Assembly: GCA_963757605.1 (NCBI GenBank)
Contig: CAVWSF010000005.1
Span: forward strand, 1,587,667 to 1,651,666
DNA: 64,000 nt
Direction of reading: 5' to 3'
DNA from: an uncultured Actinomycetes bacterium
GTDB lineage: Bacteria > Actinomycetota > Thermoleophilia > Gaiellales > JAICJC01
Shown one piece after another: positions 2,208-64,000 of the stretch; position 1 is the stretch's first letter, and every line of letters starts with the position of its first letter. The notes beneath the pieces were generated by a model. The model saw nothing but the letters and a program-made list of their open reading frames with translations. It was not told where the DNA came from and did not search any database. The position numbers and the translations under genes were made by a program.

Positions 2208-5200
2208 CCGTCTCGCGCGCGCTCTCGTCCGCGAGGCTCTCGCGGCAGACCGCCTGGGCCTGGTACATGGCCGCGGGCGCCTTCGTCACGCTCCTTTACG
2301 CGACGGTCCCGCCGGTCGCCGGCAACGGCCGGGTGATGAACGCGCTCGGGCTCTCGTCCTCGGTGGCGATCGTGCTCGGCATCGTCTACCACCAGCCCAA
2401 GCTGCGGAAGGCGTGGGTGTTCTTCCTGGTCGGGCAGCTCCTCTTCTTCATGGGCGACGTCTACACGTACAGCCCGAACGTCCCGTTCCCGTCGTGGGGG
2501 GACGCGCTCTACCTGACGGTGTATCCGGCGCTCATGGCGGGCCTCGTCCTGCTCGTGCGCCGCCGCAACCCGATCTCCGACTGGGCCAGCCTGATCGACT
2601 CGCTGATCCTGACGCTCGGCATCGCCCTGCTCTCGTGGGTGTTCCTGGTCGCGCCGTACATCGACTTCAGCGGCATGTCCTCCCTCGACAAGGGCATCTC
2701 AATGGCCTACCCGCTCGGCGACGTCCTGCTGCTGGCTGCGGCCATCCGGCTCGCCGTCGACGCCGGCCGCCGCCAGCCCGCCTTCTACCTGCTCGCCTCG
2801 AGCATCGTGTGTCTGCTCGTCACGGACTCGGTCTACAACTACATGCTCCTCAAGGGCACCTACGACCACCAGGTCCTGCTGGACGTGGGCTGGATCGGCT
2901 ACTACCTGCTCTGGGGCGCCGCGGCGCTGCATCCCTCGATGCGCACGCTGGACGAGCCGGCACCCGATCGCTACGTGCGCCTCACCCGCGTCCGGCTCGG
3001 CCTGCTCGCGGTCGCCTGCCTCATCGCGCCGGCGATCCGGATCGTCCAGGCCGACCGCACCGCCGAGATGCTGGTCGTCACCTGCGCGTCGATGCTGCTC
3101 TTCCTGCTCGTGGTCGCTCGCATGGCCGGCCTCGTCCGCCAGGAGGAGCGGGTCGTCGCCCGCGAGCGCGCCCTGCGCCACGTCGGGCTCGCGCTGGTCG
3201 GCGCGACCGGCCTCGACCAGATCTACGCCGCCACGATCGAGGCCGTCCAGTCGCTGGTCGGGAAGGCCGTTCCCGTGTGGGTCGTCGACGTCAAGAACGA
3301 CGGCTGCCGCATCGTCGCGTCATCGGACGGGCACCGAGCCGAGGCCGCCGCACTCGACGTCCTCGCGACGGCGTGGATCGCCCGCCGCACCGCGGTCGGC
3401 TCCGCCCCGCTCGCCGAGGCGCCGCCCGAGCTTCGCGCCGCCCTCGGGATCGCCGAGGACGCCGTCGACGCCGACGACCGGCTCGTCCTCTCGCAGCTCT
3501 CAGGCCGCGGCGAGGCGCTCGGGTACGTCGTCGTCGCCGTGGACAAGGCCGACGTCGCCGTCCTCACGCCCGCCCTCGAGGCGCTCGGCTCGCAGGTGGC
3601 CCTGGCCGTCTCGAGCGCGCTCCTCTCCGAGGACCTCCACCGGCGCCAGAGCGAGGCTCGCTTCCGCTCGCTGGTCGCCCACTCGAGCGATCTGATCACG
3701 GTGCTCGACGCGGGCGGGGAGATCAGCTACCTCAGCCCGTCGATCGAGCGCCTGCTCGGCTACGGGGCGGACGACCTCCACGGCACGAGCTTCCTCTCGC
3801 TCGTCGCGCCGGCCGACCGCGGCCGCATCGCGCACATCCTGGAGCCGGCCGGGCCCGAGATCGACAGCCACACGCTCGAGTGCGCGCTCGTCCATCGCGA
3901 CGGCACCGACCTCGAGTTCGAGATCCGGCACTCGAACCTGATCGACGACGAGCACATCCGCGGCATCGTCTTGAACTCGCGCGACATCAGCGAGCGCAAG
4001 ACCTTCGAGCGCCAGCTCGCCCACCAGGCCTTCCACGACTCCGTGACCGGGCTCGCCAACCGCGCCCTCTTCGCCGATCGCGTCGCCCATGCGCTCTCGC
4101 GGCGGTCCGACGAGCGCTCGCCGATCGGCGTGATGTTCATCGACCTCGACGACTTCAAGACGATCAACGACAGCCTCGGGCACCCCGTCGGCGACTCGGT
4201 GCTGCGCGAGGTCGGAGAGCGGCTGCTCGCGGCGCTCCGGCCCACCGACACGGCCGCCCGGTTCGGCGGCGACGAGTTCGCGGTCCTGCTCGAGGACATC
4301 GAGGGCACCCAGCACGCGGCCGACATCGCCGAGCGCCTCAAGGAGGCCATCGAGCGGCCGGTCACGGTCGAGGAGAAGCAGCTCTTCGTGCGCGCCAGCA
4401 TCGGCATCTGCCTCACGCGCACGGGCGAGGCAACGAGCCCGGAGGACCTGCTCCGAAACGCCGACGTCGCGATGTACATGGCCAAGCGCGATATCAAGGG
4501 CAGCTACCGCATGTTCGAGCCGGCGATGCACGAGAGCGTCGTCGAGCGGCTCGAGCTGCGCGCCGACCTCCAGCGGGCCATCGACGAGCGCCAGCTCGAG
4601 GTGCACTACCAGCCGGTCGTGCGGCTCGACAGGGGCTCGGTGAACGGGCTCGAGGCGCTGCTGCGCTGGCAGCACCCGACCAAGGGCACGATCTCGCCCG
4701 TCCAGTTCATCCCGCTCGCCGAGGAGACCGGCCTCATCATCCCGATCGGCCGCTGGGTGCTGCGCGAAGCCTGCAAGCAGGGCGCCGCCCTCCAGAAGGC
4801 GGTCGGCGACGGCCAGCGCCTGATGATGAGCGTCAACCTGTCGGTGAAGCAGCTCCAGTCCGACACGATCGTCGCCGACGTCGAGTCTGCGCTCGAGGAG
4901 TCCGGGCTCGTCCACGAGAACCTGGTGCTCGAGATCACCGAGTCCGTGATGATGGCCGACACCGACCTCGCGGTGGAGCGGCTGCACGCGCTCAAGGCGC
5001 TGGGCGTGCGGCTTGCGATGGACGACTTCGGCACCGGCTACTCGTCGCTCAGCTACCTCGAGAAGTTCCCGATCGACATCCTGAAGATGGACCGGTCGTT
5101 CCTGCAGTCCGGCAAGGCCGACTCGGGCCTCGCCGCCGCGATCGTGAGCCTCGGCGAGACCTTGAAGCTCCAGGTGGTCGCCGAGGGCATCGAGATGCCC

Positions 5201-5359: not shown

Positions 5360-6710
5360 TTACGAGGCGCTCGACCGCCCGGGCGGGTTCTCGCGTGTGA
5401 ACCTGCTTCACCCGCTGCGCCACCGGCGCTTCCTGCTCCTGTGGGCGGGGATGACGGTGTCGCTCTTCGGCGACGGCATCTTCCTCGTCGCCATGGCGTG
5501 GCAGGTGTACGAGCTCTGGAACGCGCCGGCGGCGCTCTCGGTCGTCGGGATCGCGATGACCGTGCCCACGATCGCCTGCCTGCTCCCGGGCGGCGTCGTC
5601 AGCGACCGCTTCGACCGGCGCTCCGTGATGCTCGCGGCCGATGCGCTTAGGGCCGTCGTCATCGGCCTCCTCGCCGCCCTCTCGGCCACCGGGTCGCTCA
5701 CCCTCTGGGAGCTGGCCGTCCTGTGCGCCGTCTACGGCGTCGGGACCGCCTTCTTCAACCCCGCCTTCGACGCGGTGGTGCCCGACATCCTGCCGGCCGA
5801 CCAGCTCGCGGCGGCCAACTCGCTCGACCAGTTCGTGCGTCCGCTCGCGCTGCGGCTCGCCGGGCCGGCGGCGGCGGGATGGCTCATCGCGGGCGTCGGT
5901 CTCGGCGCCGCCTTTGCGATCGACGCGGCGACGTTCTGCGTCTCCGCTGCGGCGCTCGTGGCGATCGGGCGGACGCCGCGCCCGCGGCGGGAGCCCGGCC
6001 AGTCGGCGGTCGAGGACGTCCGCCAGGGCTACCGCTTCATCCGCCGGCGGGTGTGGCTGTGGGGCACGCTGCTCTCGGCGGCGGTCGCCTACCTCGTCTT
6101 CCTGGGGCCGACCGAGGTGCTCCTGCCGTACATGGTGAAGAACGTCGTGCACGGCTCGGCGGAGTCGCTCGGCCTGGTGTTCGCCGCGGGCGGCCTGGGC
6201 GCGATCGGCTGCGCGCTCGTCATGGGCCAGCGCGGTCAGCCGCGCCGGGGCGTCGCGTTCATCTACGCCACCTGGACGCTCGCGACCGTCGCCGTCGCCG
6301 GCTACGGGCTCGCGACCGCCACCTGGCAGCTCATGCTGGCGTGCCTGGTGTTCAACATCCTCGAGACCGCGGGGACGATCGTGTGGGCGACGCTCAAGCA
6401 GCAGCACGTGCCGGCCGAGCTTCTGGGCCGGGTGTCGAGCCTGGACTGGCTGATCTCGATCGGCCTCCTGCCGCTGTCGTTCGCGCTGACGGCGCCGGCG
6501 GTGGCGCTCCTGGGCGCTCGCACGACGCTCGTGGCGGCCGGCGTGATCGGCGCTGTGGTGACCGCGTCGGCGCTCCTCCTGCCCGGCATGCTCGACCTCG
6601 ACCGGGCCGCCGAGCCCGAGCCGCAAGCCCCCGATGAGGTGGACGTCGTGGTCACGCGAATCCGCCTTCACGAGAGCGATCCGTCCGCCCTCCCGGGCCC
6701 TCGCGCATAG
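5349..6710 (+). CDS. MFS transporter (EntS/MFS_3-like, 12 TMS)
   Basis: 453-aa hydrophobic ORF with 'FRLLWAG...FGDGIFLVAMAW' and 'VVSDRFDRR'. It overlaps the GGDEF-EAL stop by 11 nt. A paralog-like gene lies at 47176..48432. Confidence 0.8.
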   Translation: MQHSYEALDRPGGFSRVNLLHPLRHRRFLLLWAGMTVSLFGDGIFLVAMAWQVYELWNAPAALSVVGIAMTVPTIACLLPGGVVSDRFDRRSVMLAADALRAVVIGLLAALSATGSLTLWELAVLCAVYGVGTAFFNPAFDAVVPDILPADQLAAANSLDQFVRPLALRLAGPAAAGWLIAGVGLGAAFAIDAATFCVSAAALVAIGRTPRPRREPGQSAVEDVRQGYRFIRRRVWLWGTLLSAAVAYLVFLGPTEVLLPYMVKNVVHGSAESLGLVFAAGGLGAIGCALVMGQRGQPRRGVAFIYATWTLATVAVAGYGLATATWQLMLACLVFNILETAGTIVWATLKQQHVPAELLGRVSSLDWLISIGLLPLSFALTAPAVALLGARTTLVAAGVIGAVVTASALLLPGMLDLDRAAEPEPQAPDEVDVVVTRIRLHESDPSALPGPRA

Positions 6711-6875: not shown

Positions 6876-7598
6876 ATGACAAAGAGGATTGTGGCGGCGC
6901 TCGTCGTCGCCCTGGGGATGCTGACCTTCGCCGCGGTCGCTTCGGCCGAGCCGAAGGTCGACTCCAGCCAGCGGCTGCGGGTGCAGGTGGATCCGAACCA
7001 GTCGGGCTGCAACTCCGTCGACTCTGTTGCCGGGTGGGTCATGGGGCCGGATTCCCCGAGCGACTCCAACCAGCGCCTGTTCCATACGGACGTCGGCACA
7101 CCTATCGGCTGCGTCCTCCTGTTCTCGAACGCGAGCTTCAACCGCCACGTCGCGGTCGGGAAACAGAAGAACATCTCGATCCAACTCCGCACGACGTCGG
7201 TCTCACTCGGCCTGAACTACATGGTGGCGGAGGTCTCGACCGACGGGAACAACTCGACGACCGAGGACACGCTGTTCCTCGATCCCGCCGATTGCAACCA
7301 TCCTGTGGGCAGCAGCACAACCTGGGTCCGGGCCGACTTCACGGGCTTCAAGGGCGACAACACGTGCATGATCGTCGTGAACTCCCCGCAGACCGCGATG
7401 TACACGTCCGACGCGGAGCACTCGGCGTTCCAGAACTATGCCGCCGACCACCCCGGGGCACTCGTGATCCATAAGTACGTCGTGATCGCGAAGTCAGGTG
7501 ACAGCCGGTTCGACCGGATCGCCCTCGGCGCCGGGAAGATGTACGACAACGACAGCTCGCACGCCGTGAAATGCACGACCGAGGCAAGCTGCTCGTAG
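6876..7598 (+). CDS. secreted hypothetical protein (signal peptide, 6 Cys), no family recognised
   Basis: N-terminus 'MTKRIVAALVVALGMLTFAAVASA|EP' is a classic signal peptide. A strong SD precedes the start. GC is visibly lower than in the neighbours, and the composition is Asn/Ser/Thr-rich. Confidence 0.7.
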   Translation: MTKRIVAALVVALGMLTFAAVASAEPKVDSSQRLRVQVDPNQSGCNSVDSVAGWVMGPDSPSDSNQRLFHTDVGTPIGCVLLFSNASFNRHVAVGKQKNISIQLRTTSVSLGLNYMVAEVSTDGNNSTTEDTLFLDPADCNHPVGSSTTWVRADFTGFKGDNTCMIVVNSPQTAMYTSDAEHSAFQNYAADHPGALVIHKYVVIAKSGDSRFDRIALGAGKMYDNDSSHAVKCTTEASCS

Positions 7599-60543: not shown

Positions 60544-61955
60544 GCGTGCGCCTCGGCCGTGCGGCGTGCGGTCGCCTCGGCCCAGCGTGTCGTGGAGACG
60601 AACGCGAGCACGAGAACGGCGGCGACCTCAGCGAGGATCATCCACCACGCCGGCCCTGCCGCGGTTGTGAAAGCGATCCCGCCGTCGAGGGCGGCGCTCC
60701 CGCCGGCGATCGCGCCCGCGAGCGCCACTCCCATCGTCAGGCCAACCTGGCGGCTGGTCGAAGCCACGGCGGCGGCGACGCCGGCCTGCGAGGCGGGCAT
60801 GCCGGAGACGGCGGTGTTGGTGATCGGCGGGTTCACGAGGCCGAAGCCGACCCCGAACACCGCGTAGGCGACGAGCACGTAGGCGATCGCGCTGTCCGCC
60901 CGAAGCTGGGTCAGCATCGCCGCGGAGGCGGTCAGCCCGACGCCGGCCGCGAGCAGCGGCGGCCGCGGGCCGCGGGAGCCGACGAGGCGGCCCGAGAGCG
61001 GTGCGAAGATCAGCACCATCGCGGCCATCGGCAGCATGCACAGGCCGGCCCGAAACGGCGAGAGCCCGCGCACGTCCTGCAGGTAGAGCGTGTTCAGGAA
61101 CAGGAACGCCCCGAGCGCCGCGAACGCGCACACGGCGATCGCGCTGGCGCCGGAGAACGGGGCGCTGCGGAACCAGCGCACCTCGAGCAGCGGCTCGCGC
61201 CGCCGCAGCTCGTACGGGATAAGGGTGGCGATTGCCAGCGCCGCCACGGCGAGCGCCGCCACGATCTCGGGTGAGGCCCAGCCGTGGTCGGGCCCCTCGA
61301 TGGTTCCGTACGTGAGCGACGCCAGGCCGACGATCACGAGGAGCTGACCGACGAGATCGACCCGGCGCGGCCGCTCGGCGCGCGACTCGGGCACGAACCG
61401 GCGGGTGGCGAGGAAGGCCAGCGCGCCGACCGGCACGTTCACCAGGAAGACGGCCCGCCAGCCGACGGCGCCGACCAGGGCGCCCCCGAGCACGGGCCCG
61501 AGCGCGATGCTGAGCCCGAACATCGCCGCGTAGACGCCGATCGCGCGGGCTCGCTCGGCCGGATCGACGAACACGTTTCGGATGATCGACATCGCCACCG
61601 GGCTCAGCATCGAGCCGCCGATCGCCTGAAGCACCCGAGCGGCGATCAGCACACCCTGCGTGGGCGCCGCCGCACACAGCAGCGACCCGAGCGCGAACAC
61701 GAGCAGGCCGACCTGGAACACGCGCTTTCGCCCGACGCGGTCGGCGGTGGACCCGGCCAGCATGAGCAGGCTCGCCAGAACGAGGGTGTACGCGTCGACC
61801 GTCCACTGCAGCCCTGCCAGCGAGGAGCCCAGGGAGCGGTGGATGGCAGGCAGCGCGATGTTCACGATCGTCGCGTCGAGCCCGACCATCAAGAGGCCGG
61901 TGGAGCAGATCACCAGCACCAGGTGGCGACGGCGCTTCGAGTTGATGTCAGTCAC
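60540..61955 (-). CDS. MFS efflux transporter, DHA2 (EmrB/QacA) type
   Basis: 471 aa with 'LMVGLDATIVNIALPAI', 'LQWTVDAYTLVLASLLMLAGSTADRVGRKR' and 'RVLQAIGGSMLSPVAMSII'. GTG start at 61955. Confidence 0.85.
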   Translation of the reverse strand: MTDINSKRRRHLVLVICSTGLLMVGLDATIVNIALPAIHRSLGSSLAGLQWTVDAYTLVLASLLMLAGSTADRVGRKRVFQVGLLVFALGSLLCAAAPTQGVLIAARVLQAIGGSMLSPVAMSIIRNVFVDPAERARAIGVYAAMFGLSIALGPVLGGALVGAVGWRAVFLVNVPVGALAFLATRRFVPESRAERPRRVDLVGQLLVIVGLASLTYGTIEGPDHGWASPEIVAALAVAALAIATLIPYELRRREPLLEVRWFRSAPFSGASAIAVCAFAALGAFLFLNTLYLQDVRGLSPFRAGLCMLPMAAMVLIFAPLSGRLVGSRGPRPPLLAAGVGLTASAAMLTQLRADSAIAYVLVAYAVFGVGFGLVNPPITNTAVSGMPASQAGVAAAVASTSRQVGLTMGVALAGAIAGGSAALDGGIAFTTAAGPAWWMILAEVAAVLVLAFVSTTRWAEATARRTAEAHA

Positions 61956-61990
61956 TGTCGTAGTGTAGCATGTCGATGACAGTCACTGTC
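61948..61990. promoter_or_regulatory. candidate TetR operator: two copies of CAGTCACTG-core palindrome in the divergent MFS/TetR intergenic region
   Basis: TCAGTCACTGTCG lies at 61948-61960 and overlaps the MFS GTG start. GACAGTCACTGTC at 61978-61990 is a perfect 6+1+6 palindrome, 20 nt upstream of the TetR ATG. Confidence 0.4.
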
Positions 61991-62009
61991 GTCACGAGAA
62001 TCGAGATCC

Positions 62010-62567
62010 ATGGCCCGCTGGCAACCCGACGCACGCGGCCGCCTCCGGCAGGCGGCCCTCGAGCTCTACGGCGAGCACGGCTTCGACCAGACCACGGTGG
62101 CGCAGATCGCCGAGCGGGCGGGCCTCACGGAGCGGACGTTCTACCGCCACTTCGCCGACAAGCGCGAGGTCGTGTTCGCGGGCGAGGTGCGGCGCGTGCT
62201 CGTGAGCACAGTCGCCGACGCGCCCGCGGAGATGACCGCGATCGAGGCGGTCACGGCCGCCCTCGACGCAGCCGGAACCGTGCTCGGCGAGCGCCGTGAG
62301 ATGACTCGCCGCCGCCAAGCCGTCATCGCCGCGAACCCCAGCCTGCAGCAAGGGGAGCAGATCAAGTACGCGGTGCTTGCCGACGACCTGGCTGAAGCCT
62401 TGCGCGGACGGGGCGTCGAGCCCCTTGCCGCCCGCCTGGCCGCCGACGCCGGCGTGGCCGTCTTCCGGGCCGCGTTCGAGCGCTGGCTCGACGAGGACGA
62501 GCACCGTGATTTCGGTCGGCTCGTCCGCGAAACGCTGGACCGGCTCGCCGCCGTCGTCAGCACCTGA
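62010..62567 (+). CDS. TetR-family transcriptional regulator
   Basis: 'LRQAALELYGEHGFDQTTVAQIAERAGLTERTFYRHFADK' is the canonical TetR HTH. 185 aa. Divergent from the MFS gene. Confidence 0.85.
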   Translation: MARWQPDARGRLRQAALELYGEHGFDQTTVAQIAERAGLTERTFYRHFADKREVVFAGEVRRVLVSTVADAPAEMTAIEAVTAALDAAGTVLGERREMTRRRQAVIAANPSLQQGEQIKYAVLADDLAEALRGRGVEPLAARLAADAGVAVFRAAFERWLDEDEHRDFGRLVRETLDRLAAVVST

Positions 62568-62628
62568 CGACGCAGAATCGTCACCCATGCAGCACGGTGT
62601 TCCCGCTGACAAGTGACGCGGAAGCTGG

Positions 62629-63045
62629 TTGGCTGTGTGCATGCCCTCCCGCTTCCCACAGTCCCGCGCTGACGCGTTCGCCGACCGGCTCGACGTCGGG
62701 CTTGACACCGGTGTCTGCCTCGCCTGCCTCGGCATGGTCTGCATGGCGATGGACGGCGGCGATCCGGCCGAGATTCGGCGGCAGCTGCGGGTGATGAGTC
62801 CCGAGCTCTGGATGGATGGGCTGGCCGAGCCCGCCCTGGCTGCGGTGCGGGCGGCGCATGGTCGCGGTGATCCTGACGCCCAGGCGGCGCTCGAGGAGCT
62901 CGAGCGCCGAGGCGGTCGCAGCACGGTTGCGCAGGCGATCGTGCGGCATCTGGCGGAGAAGCTGCGACGGCAGGTTCGCACGGAGTTGCGCGTCGAGGAG
63001 CTGGCCCGGCCGCGGCTGCGGCAGTCGCCACCGGAGTGGAACTGA
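62629..63045 (+). CDS. hypothetical protein (138 aa or shorter)
   Basis: The composition and codon bias look coding. No family was recognised, and the start is uncertain (several in-frame Met). It ends 10 nt before the tRNA-fragment repeat. Confidence 0.45.
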   Translation: MAVCMPSRFPQSRADAFADRLDVGLDTGVCLACLGMVCMAMDGGDPAEIRRQLRVMSPELWMDGLAEPALAAVRAAHGRGDPDAQAALEELERRGGRSTVAQAIVRHLAEKLRRQVRTELRVEELARPRLRQSPPEWN

Positions 63046-63055
63046 GGCCGGGCGG

Positions 63056-63092
63056 GCGGAGCGGCGCAGGAGTCGAACCTACCAACCATGGG
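63056..63092 (-). repeat. orphan copy of a tRNA 3' end (att-like direct repeat), 36/37 identical to 63964..64000
   Basis: The minus strand reads CCCATGGTTGGTAGGTTCGACTCCTGCGCCGCTCCGC. The upstream sequence (63093-63150) has no D-arm, anticodon arm or matching 5' acceptor strand, so this is not a complete tRNA. Confidence 0.6.
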
Positions 63093-63134
63093 GTTACCAA
63101 CAGCAAACAAGTGGTGACGCCGACTCTGGATAGG

Positions 63135-63335
63135 ATGACCAGCATGAGGCAGGTTCAACTCAGCCGACCCGAGGCAGACGCATTGGTGCAGGCCATGGGC
63201 AGGCTGCCTGACAGCGCTACGTTCGAGCGGGACTTGATCTCCAAGATCCTGAAGCGGGCTGAAGTACCAGAGGGCAAGCCGGACAGGAAACGGCCGAGCA
63301 ACTACGACAGGTGGCTCAGGGATCAAGCGGAGTAA
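63135..63335 (+). CDS. small hypothetical protein (66 aa)
   Basis: This is the internal ATG of ORF 63036..63335. It lies in a lower-GC region, has a weak SD, and no family was recognised. Confidence 0.3.
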   Translation: MTSMRQVQLSRPEADALVQAMGRLPDSATFERDLISKILKRAEVPEGKPDRKRPSNYDRWLRDQAE

Positions 63336-63341
63336 CGACTG

Positions 63342-63782
63342 CTAGGTGTCGCGATCGCCGAGCATCTGGTAGACGCTTAGGAGCATCGCGTTGGCTGCGA
63401 GCATCGTGACGATCAGGGCGACGATCTCGAGAAAGCTGCCGAGTTCGACGTTGTCTCCGAACACGAAGTTGACGGCCTCGAGGATCACGAACTTGCTCAG
63501 GAACAGGATGAGCCACACGGCGATGAAACGACCGAGCGTCCACGCTGTCCCTTGCCTCGCCGCAAAATAGGCCGAGACGCGCTGCTCGACGCCTTTGACA
63601 GCATCGACCATCAGTTTCAGCAGGACAGCGGTCAGAACCGAGATGTAGAACGAGTCGATGACGACCGTGTGGACGAACTCGACGAACAAGTTCAGCACGA
63701 CGATGTCCACCAGCACCTCCGACACCCAAGAGGTAAAGCGGGCTTGGGCCGGCGTGATCGTCCGTCGGTCGGCGCCCCTCAC
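63342..63782 (-). CDS. small integral membrane protein (about 146 aa, 3-4 TM), family not recognised
   Basis: The hydrophobic core is 'VLVDIVVLNLFVEFVHTVVIDSFYISVLTAVLLKLMV...FIAVWLILFLSKFVILEAV...FLEIVALIVTMLAANAMLL'. GTG 63782 is preceded by AGGAGG 4 nt upstream. The upstream Arg/Pro-rich part of ORF 63342..63947 was rejected. Confidence 0.55.
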   Translation of the reverse strand: MRGADRRTITPAQARFTSWVSEVLVDIVVLNLFVEFVHTVVIDSFYISVLTAVLLKLMVDAVKGVEQRVSAYFAARQGTAWTLGRFIAVWLILFLSKFVILEAVNFVFGDNVELGSFLEIVALIVTMLAANAMLLSVYQMLGDRDT

Positions 63783-63963
63783 CAGCCCTCCTGGCGATCC
63801 TCCACATGCGGCGGCAGGTACCGCTGAGGCCGACCCGGCTCGTGGCGCTGCAGCCGCATCGAGCGCGGGTCGCGGTGGTCGAGCACCGTCACCGCGCCAG
63901 TCTAGGCCCCTGTCCCGCTGGAGCCCCGACCGCCGCGGGGAGGGCATACGGCTCTGCGTCGTA

Positions 63964-64000
63964 GCGGAGCGGCGCAGGAGTCGAACCTACCAACCGTGGG
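63964..64000 (-). tRNA. 3' end of a tRNA gene running off the window; architecture fits tRNA-Sec (possible selC)
   Basis: The minus strand reads GTAGG-TTCGACT-CCTGC (T arm), then 8 nt GCCGCTCC, then G. This is an 8-bp acceptor with discriminator G and a CAGG/TTCGACT/CCTG-type T arm, as in my recollection of E. coli selC (...GCAGGTTCGACTCCTGTGATCTTCCGCCA). The 5' part lies beyond position 64000. Confidence 0.5.

Follow-up and report, generated by a model that had tools for sequence, protein, structure and literature searches.

At one edge of the 64,000-nucleotide stretch of DNA analysed here (the window; contig CAVWSF010000005.1, from an uncultured actinobacterium of the Gaiellales), two direct copies of the 3′ end of a selenocysteine tRNA (tRNA-Sec) gene enclose an insert of 0.87 kb that carries two small genes. 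We favour, at a probability of roughly 60%, the reading that these copies are the attL- and attR-side scars of an insertion at tRNA-Sec and that the unit between them is a remnant left after deletions. Within the class of tRNA-integrating islands, the feature is best placed as a decayed member. Below, the copy at the window edge is called proximal and the other distal, and a tRNA-Sec 3′ fragment standing apart from the rest of a tRNA is called an orphan.

Under this reading, a tyrosine (lambda-type) integrase would insert DNA site-specifically into the 3′ part of the tRNA-Sec gene. A circular element with a copy of the tRNA 3′ segment would recombine with the gene, the element's copy would rebuild the tRNA, and the original 3′ segment would end up as an orphan at the opposite end of the insert. 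Repeated insertions in the lineage would then produce polar arrays, with tRNA-Sec first and after it a series of units each ending in an orphan. The window unit would be the leftover of one insertion, or of an array, after deletions that may have taken the integrase, the att arms on both sides and ~18 nt from the start of an ancestral 62-nt orphan, while two intact cargo genes stayed in place; it is probably no longer mobile by itself. On this view, a tyrosine integrase would have made this particular junction, and deletion, rather than another mechanism of insertion, would account for the missing arms.

The repeated tRNA-Sec segment

The two repeats (63056-63092 and 63964-64000) lie in the same orientation and are identical at 36 of 37 positions, the sole mismatch being an A at 63088 against a G at 63996. 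A 32-mer of the repeat occurs exactly twice across the window, even with three mismatches tolerated, and at up to three mismatches it did not occur in any of 100 dinucleotide-preserving shuffles, giving a chance expectation of zero. A profile made from related copies likewise matched just these two sites in the whole 64 kb. Read on the minus strand, either copy gives GGTTG-GTAGG-TTCGACT-CCTGC-GCCGCTCC-G, in which a T arm is followed by eight nucleotides of acceptor 3′ strand and then by the discriminator G. The 3′ strands visible in the window thus comprise CCACGG of the variable arm, the T arm GTAGG-TTCGACT-CCTGC, the 8-nt GCCGCTCC and then G.

To identify the repeated sequence we scanned one genome per species for an exact 30-mer of the repeat, in a representative set that does not include the source genome. 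The scan returned 52 loci (L001-L052), all of them in soil metagenome-assembled genomes (MAGs) classified as Gaiellales, Thermoleophilia or 'uncultured Actinomycetes', and those closest to the window are 88-94% identical to it in the flanking genes. In ~28 loci, ARAGORN predicts a tRNA-SeC gene of 92-95 nt (anticodon TCA) that has the 30-mer at its 3′ end. The full tRNA-Sec genes of the relatives score 65.2-70.2 bits on Rfam model RF01852 (gathering score 47), and align to it with an 8-bp acceptor (GGAGUGGC/GCCGCUCC), a 5-bp T stem (GUAGG/CCUGC), a 6-bp D stem and a long variable arm. The tRNA-Sec architecture of 8-bp acceptor, 5-bp T stem and long variable arm is therefore present when the 3′ strands of the window are read together with the full pairing of the relatives. 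The window repeat equals the last 42 nt of the tRNA-Sec gene in L006, L022 and L029, and the proximal copy matches the 3′ ends of the relatives' tRNA-SeC genes at 37/37 to 39/39 positions. Because the window ends before the anticodon, the assignment rests on these relatives; on such sequence comparison, the identification of the repeat as a tRNA-Sec 3′ end is well supported.

ARAGORN reported no tRNA at either copy, the proximal one being cut by the window edge. The distal copy resembles the real tRNA-Sec genes of relatives over 44 nt (63056-63099) at 97.7% identity, which makes a repeat length of 44 nt or more probable, with the window edge leaving 37 nt of it. Against RF01852, the distal region reached 18.1 bits (E = 2.7) where the gathering score is 47, and it is not a tRNA. 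Similarly, when an nhmmer profile of the relatives' orphans was run on the window, its tRNA part alone aligned (positions 94-137, E = 4e-13), with no arm. The original prediction, made from the letters of the window, had described the same-orientation repeat, its minus-strand reading as T arm, 8-nt acceptor strand and discriminator G, and a distal copy that lacks the rest of the tRNA. All three descriptions were borne out, and its assignment of the repeat to tRNA-Sec is supported by the identical 3′ ends of the relatives' genes. Of the marks of an integrative element, the window shows identically oriented copies of a tRNA 3′ segment at the two ends of the insert; an integrase inside it and conserved att arms are both absent. 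Features are collected in Table 1.

Table 1. Features at the repeat-bounded unit, its chromosomal flank and a spreading unit of related arrays
Feature	Position	Strand	Evidence and remarks
Distal orphan tRNA-Sec fragment, 44 nt, variable arm to 3′ end; attR-like scar adjoining the conserved chromosomal flank	63056..63099	-	18 bits vs 47; 97.7% identity
Proximal tRNA-Sec 3′ end, comprising some of the variable-arm 3′ strand, the T arm, the 8-nt acceptor strand and the discriminator G; presumed 3′ end of an intact gene or possibly another orphan	63964..64000	-	repeat; tRNA-SeC 3′ ends of relatives; array polarity
Gene for 146-aa predicted membrane protein, intact cargo	63342..63782	-	P0001 identical over 146 aa; 1445 homologs
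Gene for 63-aa protein, intact	63144..63335	+	P0121 is the exact product, called on a 1,657,801-bp contig that also encodes P0001
GC-rich (0.74) non-coding spacer, 181 nt, from proximal copy to membrane-gene start	63783..63963	.	composition; no recognisable att arm
138-aa open reading frame (ORF), chromosomal flank beside the distal fragment, outside the insert; synteny anchor	62629..63045	+	homologs at 82-88% DNA identity; no family match
4.7-kb unit with MMPL transporter, response regulator and histidine kinase, occurrences in relatives	L008, L009 (4438-8000), L011, L017/L026, L025, L049		

tRNA-Sec arrays in related genomes

Together, the 52 loci contain ~26 full tRNA-Sec genes and ~40 orphan fragments. 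In all 12 contigs with both, the tRNA comes first and is followed on its 3′ side by one to four orphans in the same orientation, and the polarity of the window agrees with this order. Judged by this polarity, the proximal copy would belong to an intact tRNA-Sec gene. Units are spaced at 1.1 to 57 kb, and there are up to five copies per array (five in L005/L052, four in L015/L025; those of L006 lie at 2835, 3997 and 6095). On the 5′ side of tRNA-Sec, the relatives have a conserved rpsF-ssb-rpsR-rplI-dnaB cluster.

Since arrays of three to five copies are common, and the closest syntenic relatives (L006 and CAWHWC, the latter comprising L004/L022) have three each, the proximal copy could itself be another orphan, with the array continuing past the window and the 0.87-kb unit internal or terminal in it. 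Only 37 nt of this copy fall inside the window, a length over which orphans do not differ from tRNAs. No specific evidence speaks against this reading. Among the relatives, true tRNAs make up ~26 of the ~66 copies, and in every array the tRNA is the copy lying furthest from the chromosomal flank. We regard a longer array as rather unlikely; it is independent of the other readings discussed here and compatible with the remnant explanation, altering the copy count alone.

The junctions in relatives have a recurrent anatomy. A typical orphan is 62 nt long, begins in the anticodon loop (TCTTCAAAACCGG...), and is preceded by a conserved island-side arm in which paired 9-nt direct repeats are followed by ...CCAGAGCCAAA... 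(for example L004, minus strand, ~6290-6400, and L026, ~4373-4480). The repeat pair occurs in three flavours (GGTCACTCA twice; GGGCGCG/GGGCGCAGA; TGCCACTC twice), lies ~45-70 nt from the crossover, and likely represents candidate arm-type binding sites for an integrase or Xis. Downstream arms carry TCCGC/TTCGC repeats and fall into at least two conserved families, one with GCTAGGCCGAA..GCATGGTTGRGCGG and then TCCGC-type repeats, the other with GCTCACGAATCACCTGCAAATACC. In L035, the terminal orphan keeps a tRNA 5′-acceptor-like GGGAGTGGCA upstream. From its sequence, this anatomy is that of predicted attL/attR sites made by an arm-binding tyrosine integrase with its crossover in the anticodon loop. 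Genes of the Phage_integrase family were found in relatives at L023:501-1955 (~360 nt 3′ of a copy), L050:1261-2397 and L001:205-855.

Several ARAGORN tRNA-SeC calls (L019 1559-1650, L039 6542-6651, L005 5377-5464 and L052 5608-5700) were rejected as genes. These are arm-plus-orphan junctions, which Rfam scored at 33-36 bits or did not detect (threshold 47), and such false calls could inflate tRNA-Sec counts in MAG annotations.

Many of the units between copies are just 1.1-3.6 kb long, with one to three varied accessory genes and no recombinase. In a Pfam batch of 99 ORFs of at least 110 aa from relatives' units of up to 3.7 kb, 25 of the 30 families found were listed; no integrase or transposase was among these 25, which include GT4, GNAT, SnoaL, MarR, ion channel, Na/H exchanger, GGDEF, dodecin, cupin and amidase families. 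Units also lose DNA from their interior, the 1.4-kb unit of L021 being the 3.0-kb unit of L002 minus an internal 1.6 kb. A 4.7-kb unit directly after tRNA-Sec, encoding an MMPL transporter, a LuxR-type response regulator and a histidine kinase, shows 98-99.8% identity among six species-level MAGs whose chromosomal flanks share no more than 85-92%, and has therefore spread horizontally. In L028 and L049, what this MMPL unit keeps of an L001-type integrase is a stretch of ~40 aa, located ~300 nt from the tRNA. Because islands in relatives carry integrases and the MMPL unit has spread across species, both the view of tRNA-Sec as an active integration hotspot in this lineage and the attL/attR reading are supported. 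No matching attP was found in the viral contigs, sequenced phages or plasmids searched.

A more far-reaching reading of these arrays, which we consider quite unlikely, is that tRNA-Sec is a cassette-accreting locus, where recombinase-free units of one to three genes would be inserted serially by an integrase acting in trans and would spread between species. The attP-like site of such a unit would consist of an arm with paired 9-nt repeats, 62 nt of tRNA-Sec and a second arm. If true, the locus would be a tRNA-based functional analogue of the integron, and the arm-less unit of the window a minimal or degenerate member. The relatives' arrays, as distinct from the window, do resemble integron cassettes in that small units, poor in promoters and with one to three accessory genes of varied kind, form a polar array by a fixed site, whereas the site repeated here is a directly repeated tRNA segment with arms and not a structured attC. 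An integron-like system as such was rejected, given the lack of attC, the lack of intI beside tRNA-Sec (where the neighbours are the rpsF-ssb-rpsR-rplI-dnaB genes) and the integrase remnant in at least one unit; the resemblance is superficial.

We also compared the chromosomal flank of the window with its syntenic counterparts. The 138-aa flank ORF matched no Pfam, PHROG, NCBIfam or PADLOC family, and its homologs adjoin the terminal orphan in L006 (6181-6585) and L048. Beside this same gene, L006 has a full-length orphan of the 62-nt class with its arm, and the L048 copy reaches the anticodon loop, whereas the homology of the window to both ends exactly at 63099. The simplest reading is that the window junction is derived, the DNA from the small gene to the middle of an ancestral orphan having been deleted and the tRNA-side arm lost as well. 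Relatives with the same flank genes (L006, L004/L022, L016/L009, L048) hold differing islands of 1.1-12 kb at the site, with inserts of 1.1 + 2.1 kb in L006, 8.1 + 1.8 kb in CAWHWC and 12.4 kb in CAWCOL. The occupied site is thus polymorphic among relatives, and a strictly empty site was found in none of the syntenic relatives compared. The original prediction had taken the repeat pair for an attL/attR signature and had named this comparison beforehand as a test; the polymorphism supports it.

These comparisons bear on whether the duplication could have arisen without site-specific recombination, as a segmental duplication, a decayed second tRNA-Sec, or a product of homologous or illegitimate recombination via short tRNA identity. 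Such an origin would suit the absence of arms and integrase from the insert. It would also suit the weak end-to-end Rfam alignment of the distal region (18 bits), which sets GAGTCGGCG at 63118-63126 opposite the acceptor 3′ strand, and the 5′-acceptor-like sequence that the terminal orphan of L035 keeps too. However, the 18-bit match is far under threshold, tRNA similarity stops abruptly at 63099, the same chromosomal position in relatives is a canonical arm-plus-orphan junction, and lineage-wide polar arrays with integrases offer a sufficient and specific mechanism. We therefore judge this origin very improbable.

A GT4 glycosyltransferase gene, 93-96% identical between loci, lies inside the terminal att-bounded unit in L006 (4501-5973) and L004 (1935-3375). 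In L048 (3703-5175) the same gene is ~3.6 kb outside the terminal orphan, beyond TetR-MFS genes, and the array boundary has therefore been rearranged.

Content and origin of the 0.87-kb insert

Among the units seen, that of the window is the smallest and has the shortest orphan (44 nt, starting in the variable arm); it is without the upstream and downstream arms that relatives keep. Three arm profiles run with nhmmer found nothing in the insert, and the two for the downstream arms gave E > 1 at best anywhere in the window. Because the arms are absent, it is doubtful that the unit's ends would function as att sites. There is no recombinase in the insert, as the original prediction had stated and as Pfam, jackhmmer and tblastn searches bore out, and jackhmmer/tblastn gave no tyrosine-recombinase signal anywhere in the 64-kb window. 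TCCAGAG at 63119-63125 agrees with the arm motif and may be a vestige of the arm or chance, but the match is not significant: it is a 7-mer picked post hoc, and nhmmer gives no significant arm alignment. At 63118-63126 (minus strand GAGTCGGCG) and in L035 at ~4530-4545, a short stretch upstream of the orphan resembles a tRNA 5′ acceptor strand (GGAGTGGCA), as a vestige or by chance.

Two convergent genes with stop codons 6 nt apart occupy the insert, and neither product (146 aa and 63 aa) has a Pfam, PHROG, NCBIfam or PADLOC match. The predicted membrane protein of 146 aa is identical to database protein P0001 and has 1445 homologs, none with a Pfam domain; homology is restricted to the coding sequence (63332-63770), and GC content at third codon positions (GC3) is 0.85. 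The second gene had been dismissed as a doubtful 66-aa ORF, which did not hold up: it is a real, conserved gene for a 63-aa protein (P0121), with 14 homologs at 59-92% identity and a coding-like composition (GC1/2/3 = 0.58/0.45/0.78). Homology of its region to other genomes covers 63118-63330 only, which leaves ~18 nt between the orphan fragment and the start of the homologous ribosome-binding-site region. On the proximal side, the 181-nt spacer presumably holds the membrane-gene promoter. The spacer contains a trailer, GCTACGACG, of which the first 6-8 nt alone are common with family-1 arms.

The insert has a GC content of 0.60 against 0.73, so the dip that the original prediction had noted is present, but it is no sign of foreign origin. 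Five membrane-gene homologs elsewhere show an equal dip (0.57-0.61 within flanks of 0.66-0.72) together with host-like GC3 (0.79-0.88). This rules out the dip as a mark of foreign DNA; low GC is a property of the two genes and not island evidence. In every genome examined (homologs L054-L063), the membrane gene had a different neighbourhood, always with a GC dip and high GC3.

Homologs of the insert genes were followed in seven independent contexts, all different, and homology stops at the gene ends. None of the seven contains a tRNA-Sec fragment or the partner gene, and the idea of the insert as a travelling module is thus unsupported. A Logan contig of 903 bp (ERR11718635, L053), from a short-read assembly of the sample that yielded the window, equals window positions 63960-63058, i.e. 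the insert standing alone and ending at the repeats, and many homologs of both genes are likewise on contigs of ~0.6-1.8 kb. The duplication fragments short-read assemblies at this point, and a repeat of 37-44 nt serves as a warning of a short-read assembly break here.

The compactness of the unit, with two intact genes and boundaries near the gene ends, suggests an alternative in which it is a complete minimal mobile unit without recombinase, of the cis-mobilizable element (CIME) or satellite type, whose core would be the T-arm region within the 44-nt repeat and which would be inserted and excised in trans by an integrase from another part of the genome or from a co-resident element. Recombinase-free units of 1.1-3.6 kb are common in the relatives' arrays, and at least one such unit has spread between species. 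Moreover, the T arm is an inverted repeat with a 7-nt spacer, which is the geometry of a tyrosine-recombinase core site (tRNA sublocation II, cited in PMC3146451). Yet the mobile-looking units of relatives keep ~100-nt conserved arms on both sides and the window unit keeps none, and no integrase is present in the 64-kb window. No second occurrence of the unit or its junction was found in the genome, metagenome and viral collections searched, and elsewhere each of the two genes is found without the other, with no tRNA-Sec site having both. The spreading MMPL unit, for its part, has an integrase remnant in L028 and L049, which marks it as a decayed element and not a designed cassette. On balance, we hold a complete, trans-mobilised unit to be unlikely.

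The remnant reading that we prefer has difficulties of its own. Both insert genes are intact and conserved, with boundaries ~18 nt from the ribosome-binding site and 181 nt from the start codon. The model needs at least two deletions that end exactly at or within tRNA-derived segments and leave the tRNA 3′ end perfect, and no arm vestige (nhmmer) or integrase vestige (jackhmmer/tblastn) was found in the insert. The 44-nt fragment is 97.7% identical to the tRNA and the adjacent bases have no similarity to it, a pattern that uniform decay would not give. In the contexts examined, none of the insert-gene homologs elsewhere is associated with a tRNA-Sec site. Finally, that the proximal copy completes an intact tRNA is something we infer from the relatives, not something shown in the window. 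All of these points weigh against a deletion remnant. The original prediction had offered either the decayed stump of an island or a very small satellite-like cargo; the evidence leans to the stump without settling the matter.

Precedents and significance

Island insertion at tRNA genes, selC included, is textbook knowledge (PMC2704930, PMC6174562), and the enterobacterial selC (tRNA-Sec) hotspot hosts LEE, SHI-2 and PAI-I (e.g. PMC6174562, PMC2704930). As in those islands, DNA is bracketed here by a direct repeat of a tRNA 3′ segment, with the tRNA presumably rebuilt at one end and an orphan at the other, and the same tRNA species is used. Occupancy also varies among relatives, and some of the relatives' islands have Phage_integrase genes. 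Unlike the enterobacterial cases, the hosts are soil actinobacteria of the Gaiellales/Thermoleophilia type, in another phylum, and the window insert is only 0.87 kb and lacks an integrase and arm sites.

The closest architectural precedent is found in the ssrA islands of Dehalococcoides, which follow one another in tandem downstream of one small-RNA gene; a direct repeat of that gene's 3′ end delimits every island, and a conserved motif lies beside the repeats (McMurdie et al. 2011, PMC3146451). The arrays of the present lineage share this architecture. Fifteen of the 31 ssrA islands have no integration module and have been discussed as possible cis-mobilizable elements or fixed remnants (PMC3146451). 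The two systems differ in target, repeat and enzyme: tmRNA, a 20-bp repeat and a serine recombinase in Dehalococcoides, against tRNA-Sec, 44-62-nt repeats and, in relatives, tyrosine recombinases.

CIMEs and site-specific accretion are known from streptococcal integrative and conjugative elements (PMC3146451, PMC5704250, PMC6323972). CIMEs, too, are flanked by att sites, have genes for neither recombination nor transfer, and are stacked in tandem with related elements at the 3′ end of a tRNA gene; they originate when elements that carry an integrase decay, and the integrase of a neighbouring element can in principle mobilise them. The window unit has no recombination or transfer genes and has the core repeat, but its arms are absent, whereas CIMEs keep functional attL/attR with integrase-binding sequences, and no helper element is present in the window. 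A 2026 preprint places selC within a hypervariable region in 32 of 84 Actinomarina genomes. Integration at tRNA-Sec in the lineage studied here had no prior description in the literature searched.

For the window, the gain in annotation is routine, marking a tRNA-Sec 3′ end and a small accessory insert. In the wider lineage, the arrays show tRNA-Sec beside the rpsF-dnaB operon to be a major gene-flux hotspot in abundant uncultured soil actinobacteria, with well-defined att arms on the relatives' units and clear cases of cross-species spread. The locus lends itself to work on the persistence or movement of recombinase-less islands where genetic tools are lacking, and orphan tRNA-Sec fragments offer a practical marker for delimiting accessory DNA in these MAGs.

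Two Rfam matches below threshold are probably due to chance: Hammerhead_II at 62525-62581 (16.5 bits, threshold 37) and, in a relative, the ALIL pseudoknot at L039 2997-3107 (32.7 bits, threshold 50). The single complete tRNA of the window is a tRNA-Ser (CGA) at 7028-7099. At 61941-61992, in and beside the divergent MFS-TetR intergenic region, a pair of 21-nt repeats in direct orientation (GTYGATGWCAGTCACTGTCGT; 90% identity, spacing 31 nt) lies around the MFS start codon and looks like a putative TetR operator.

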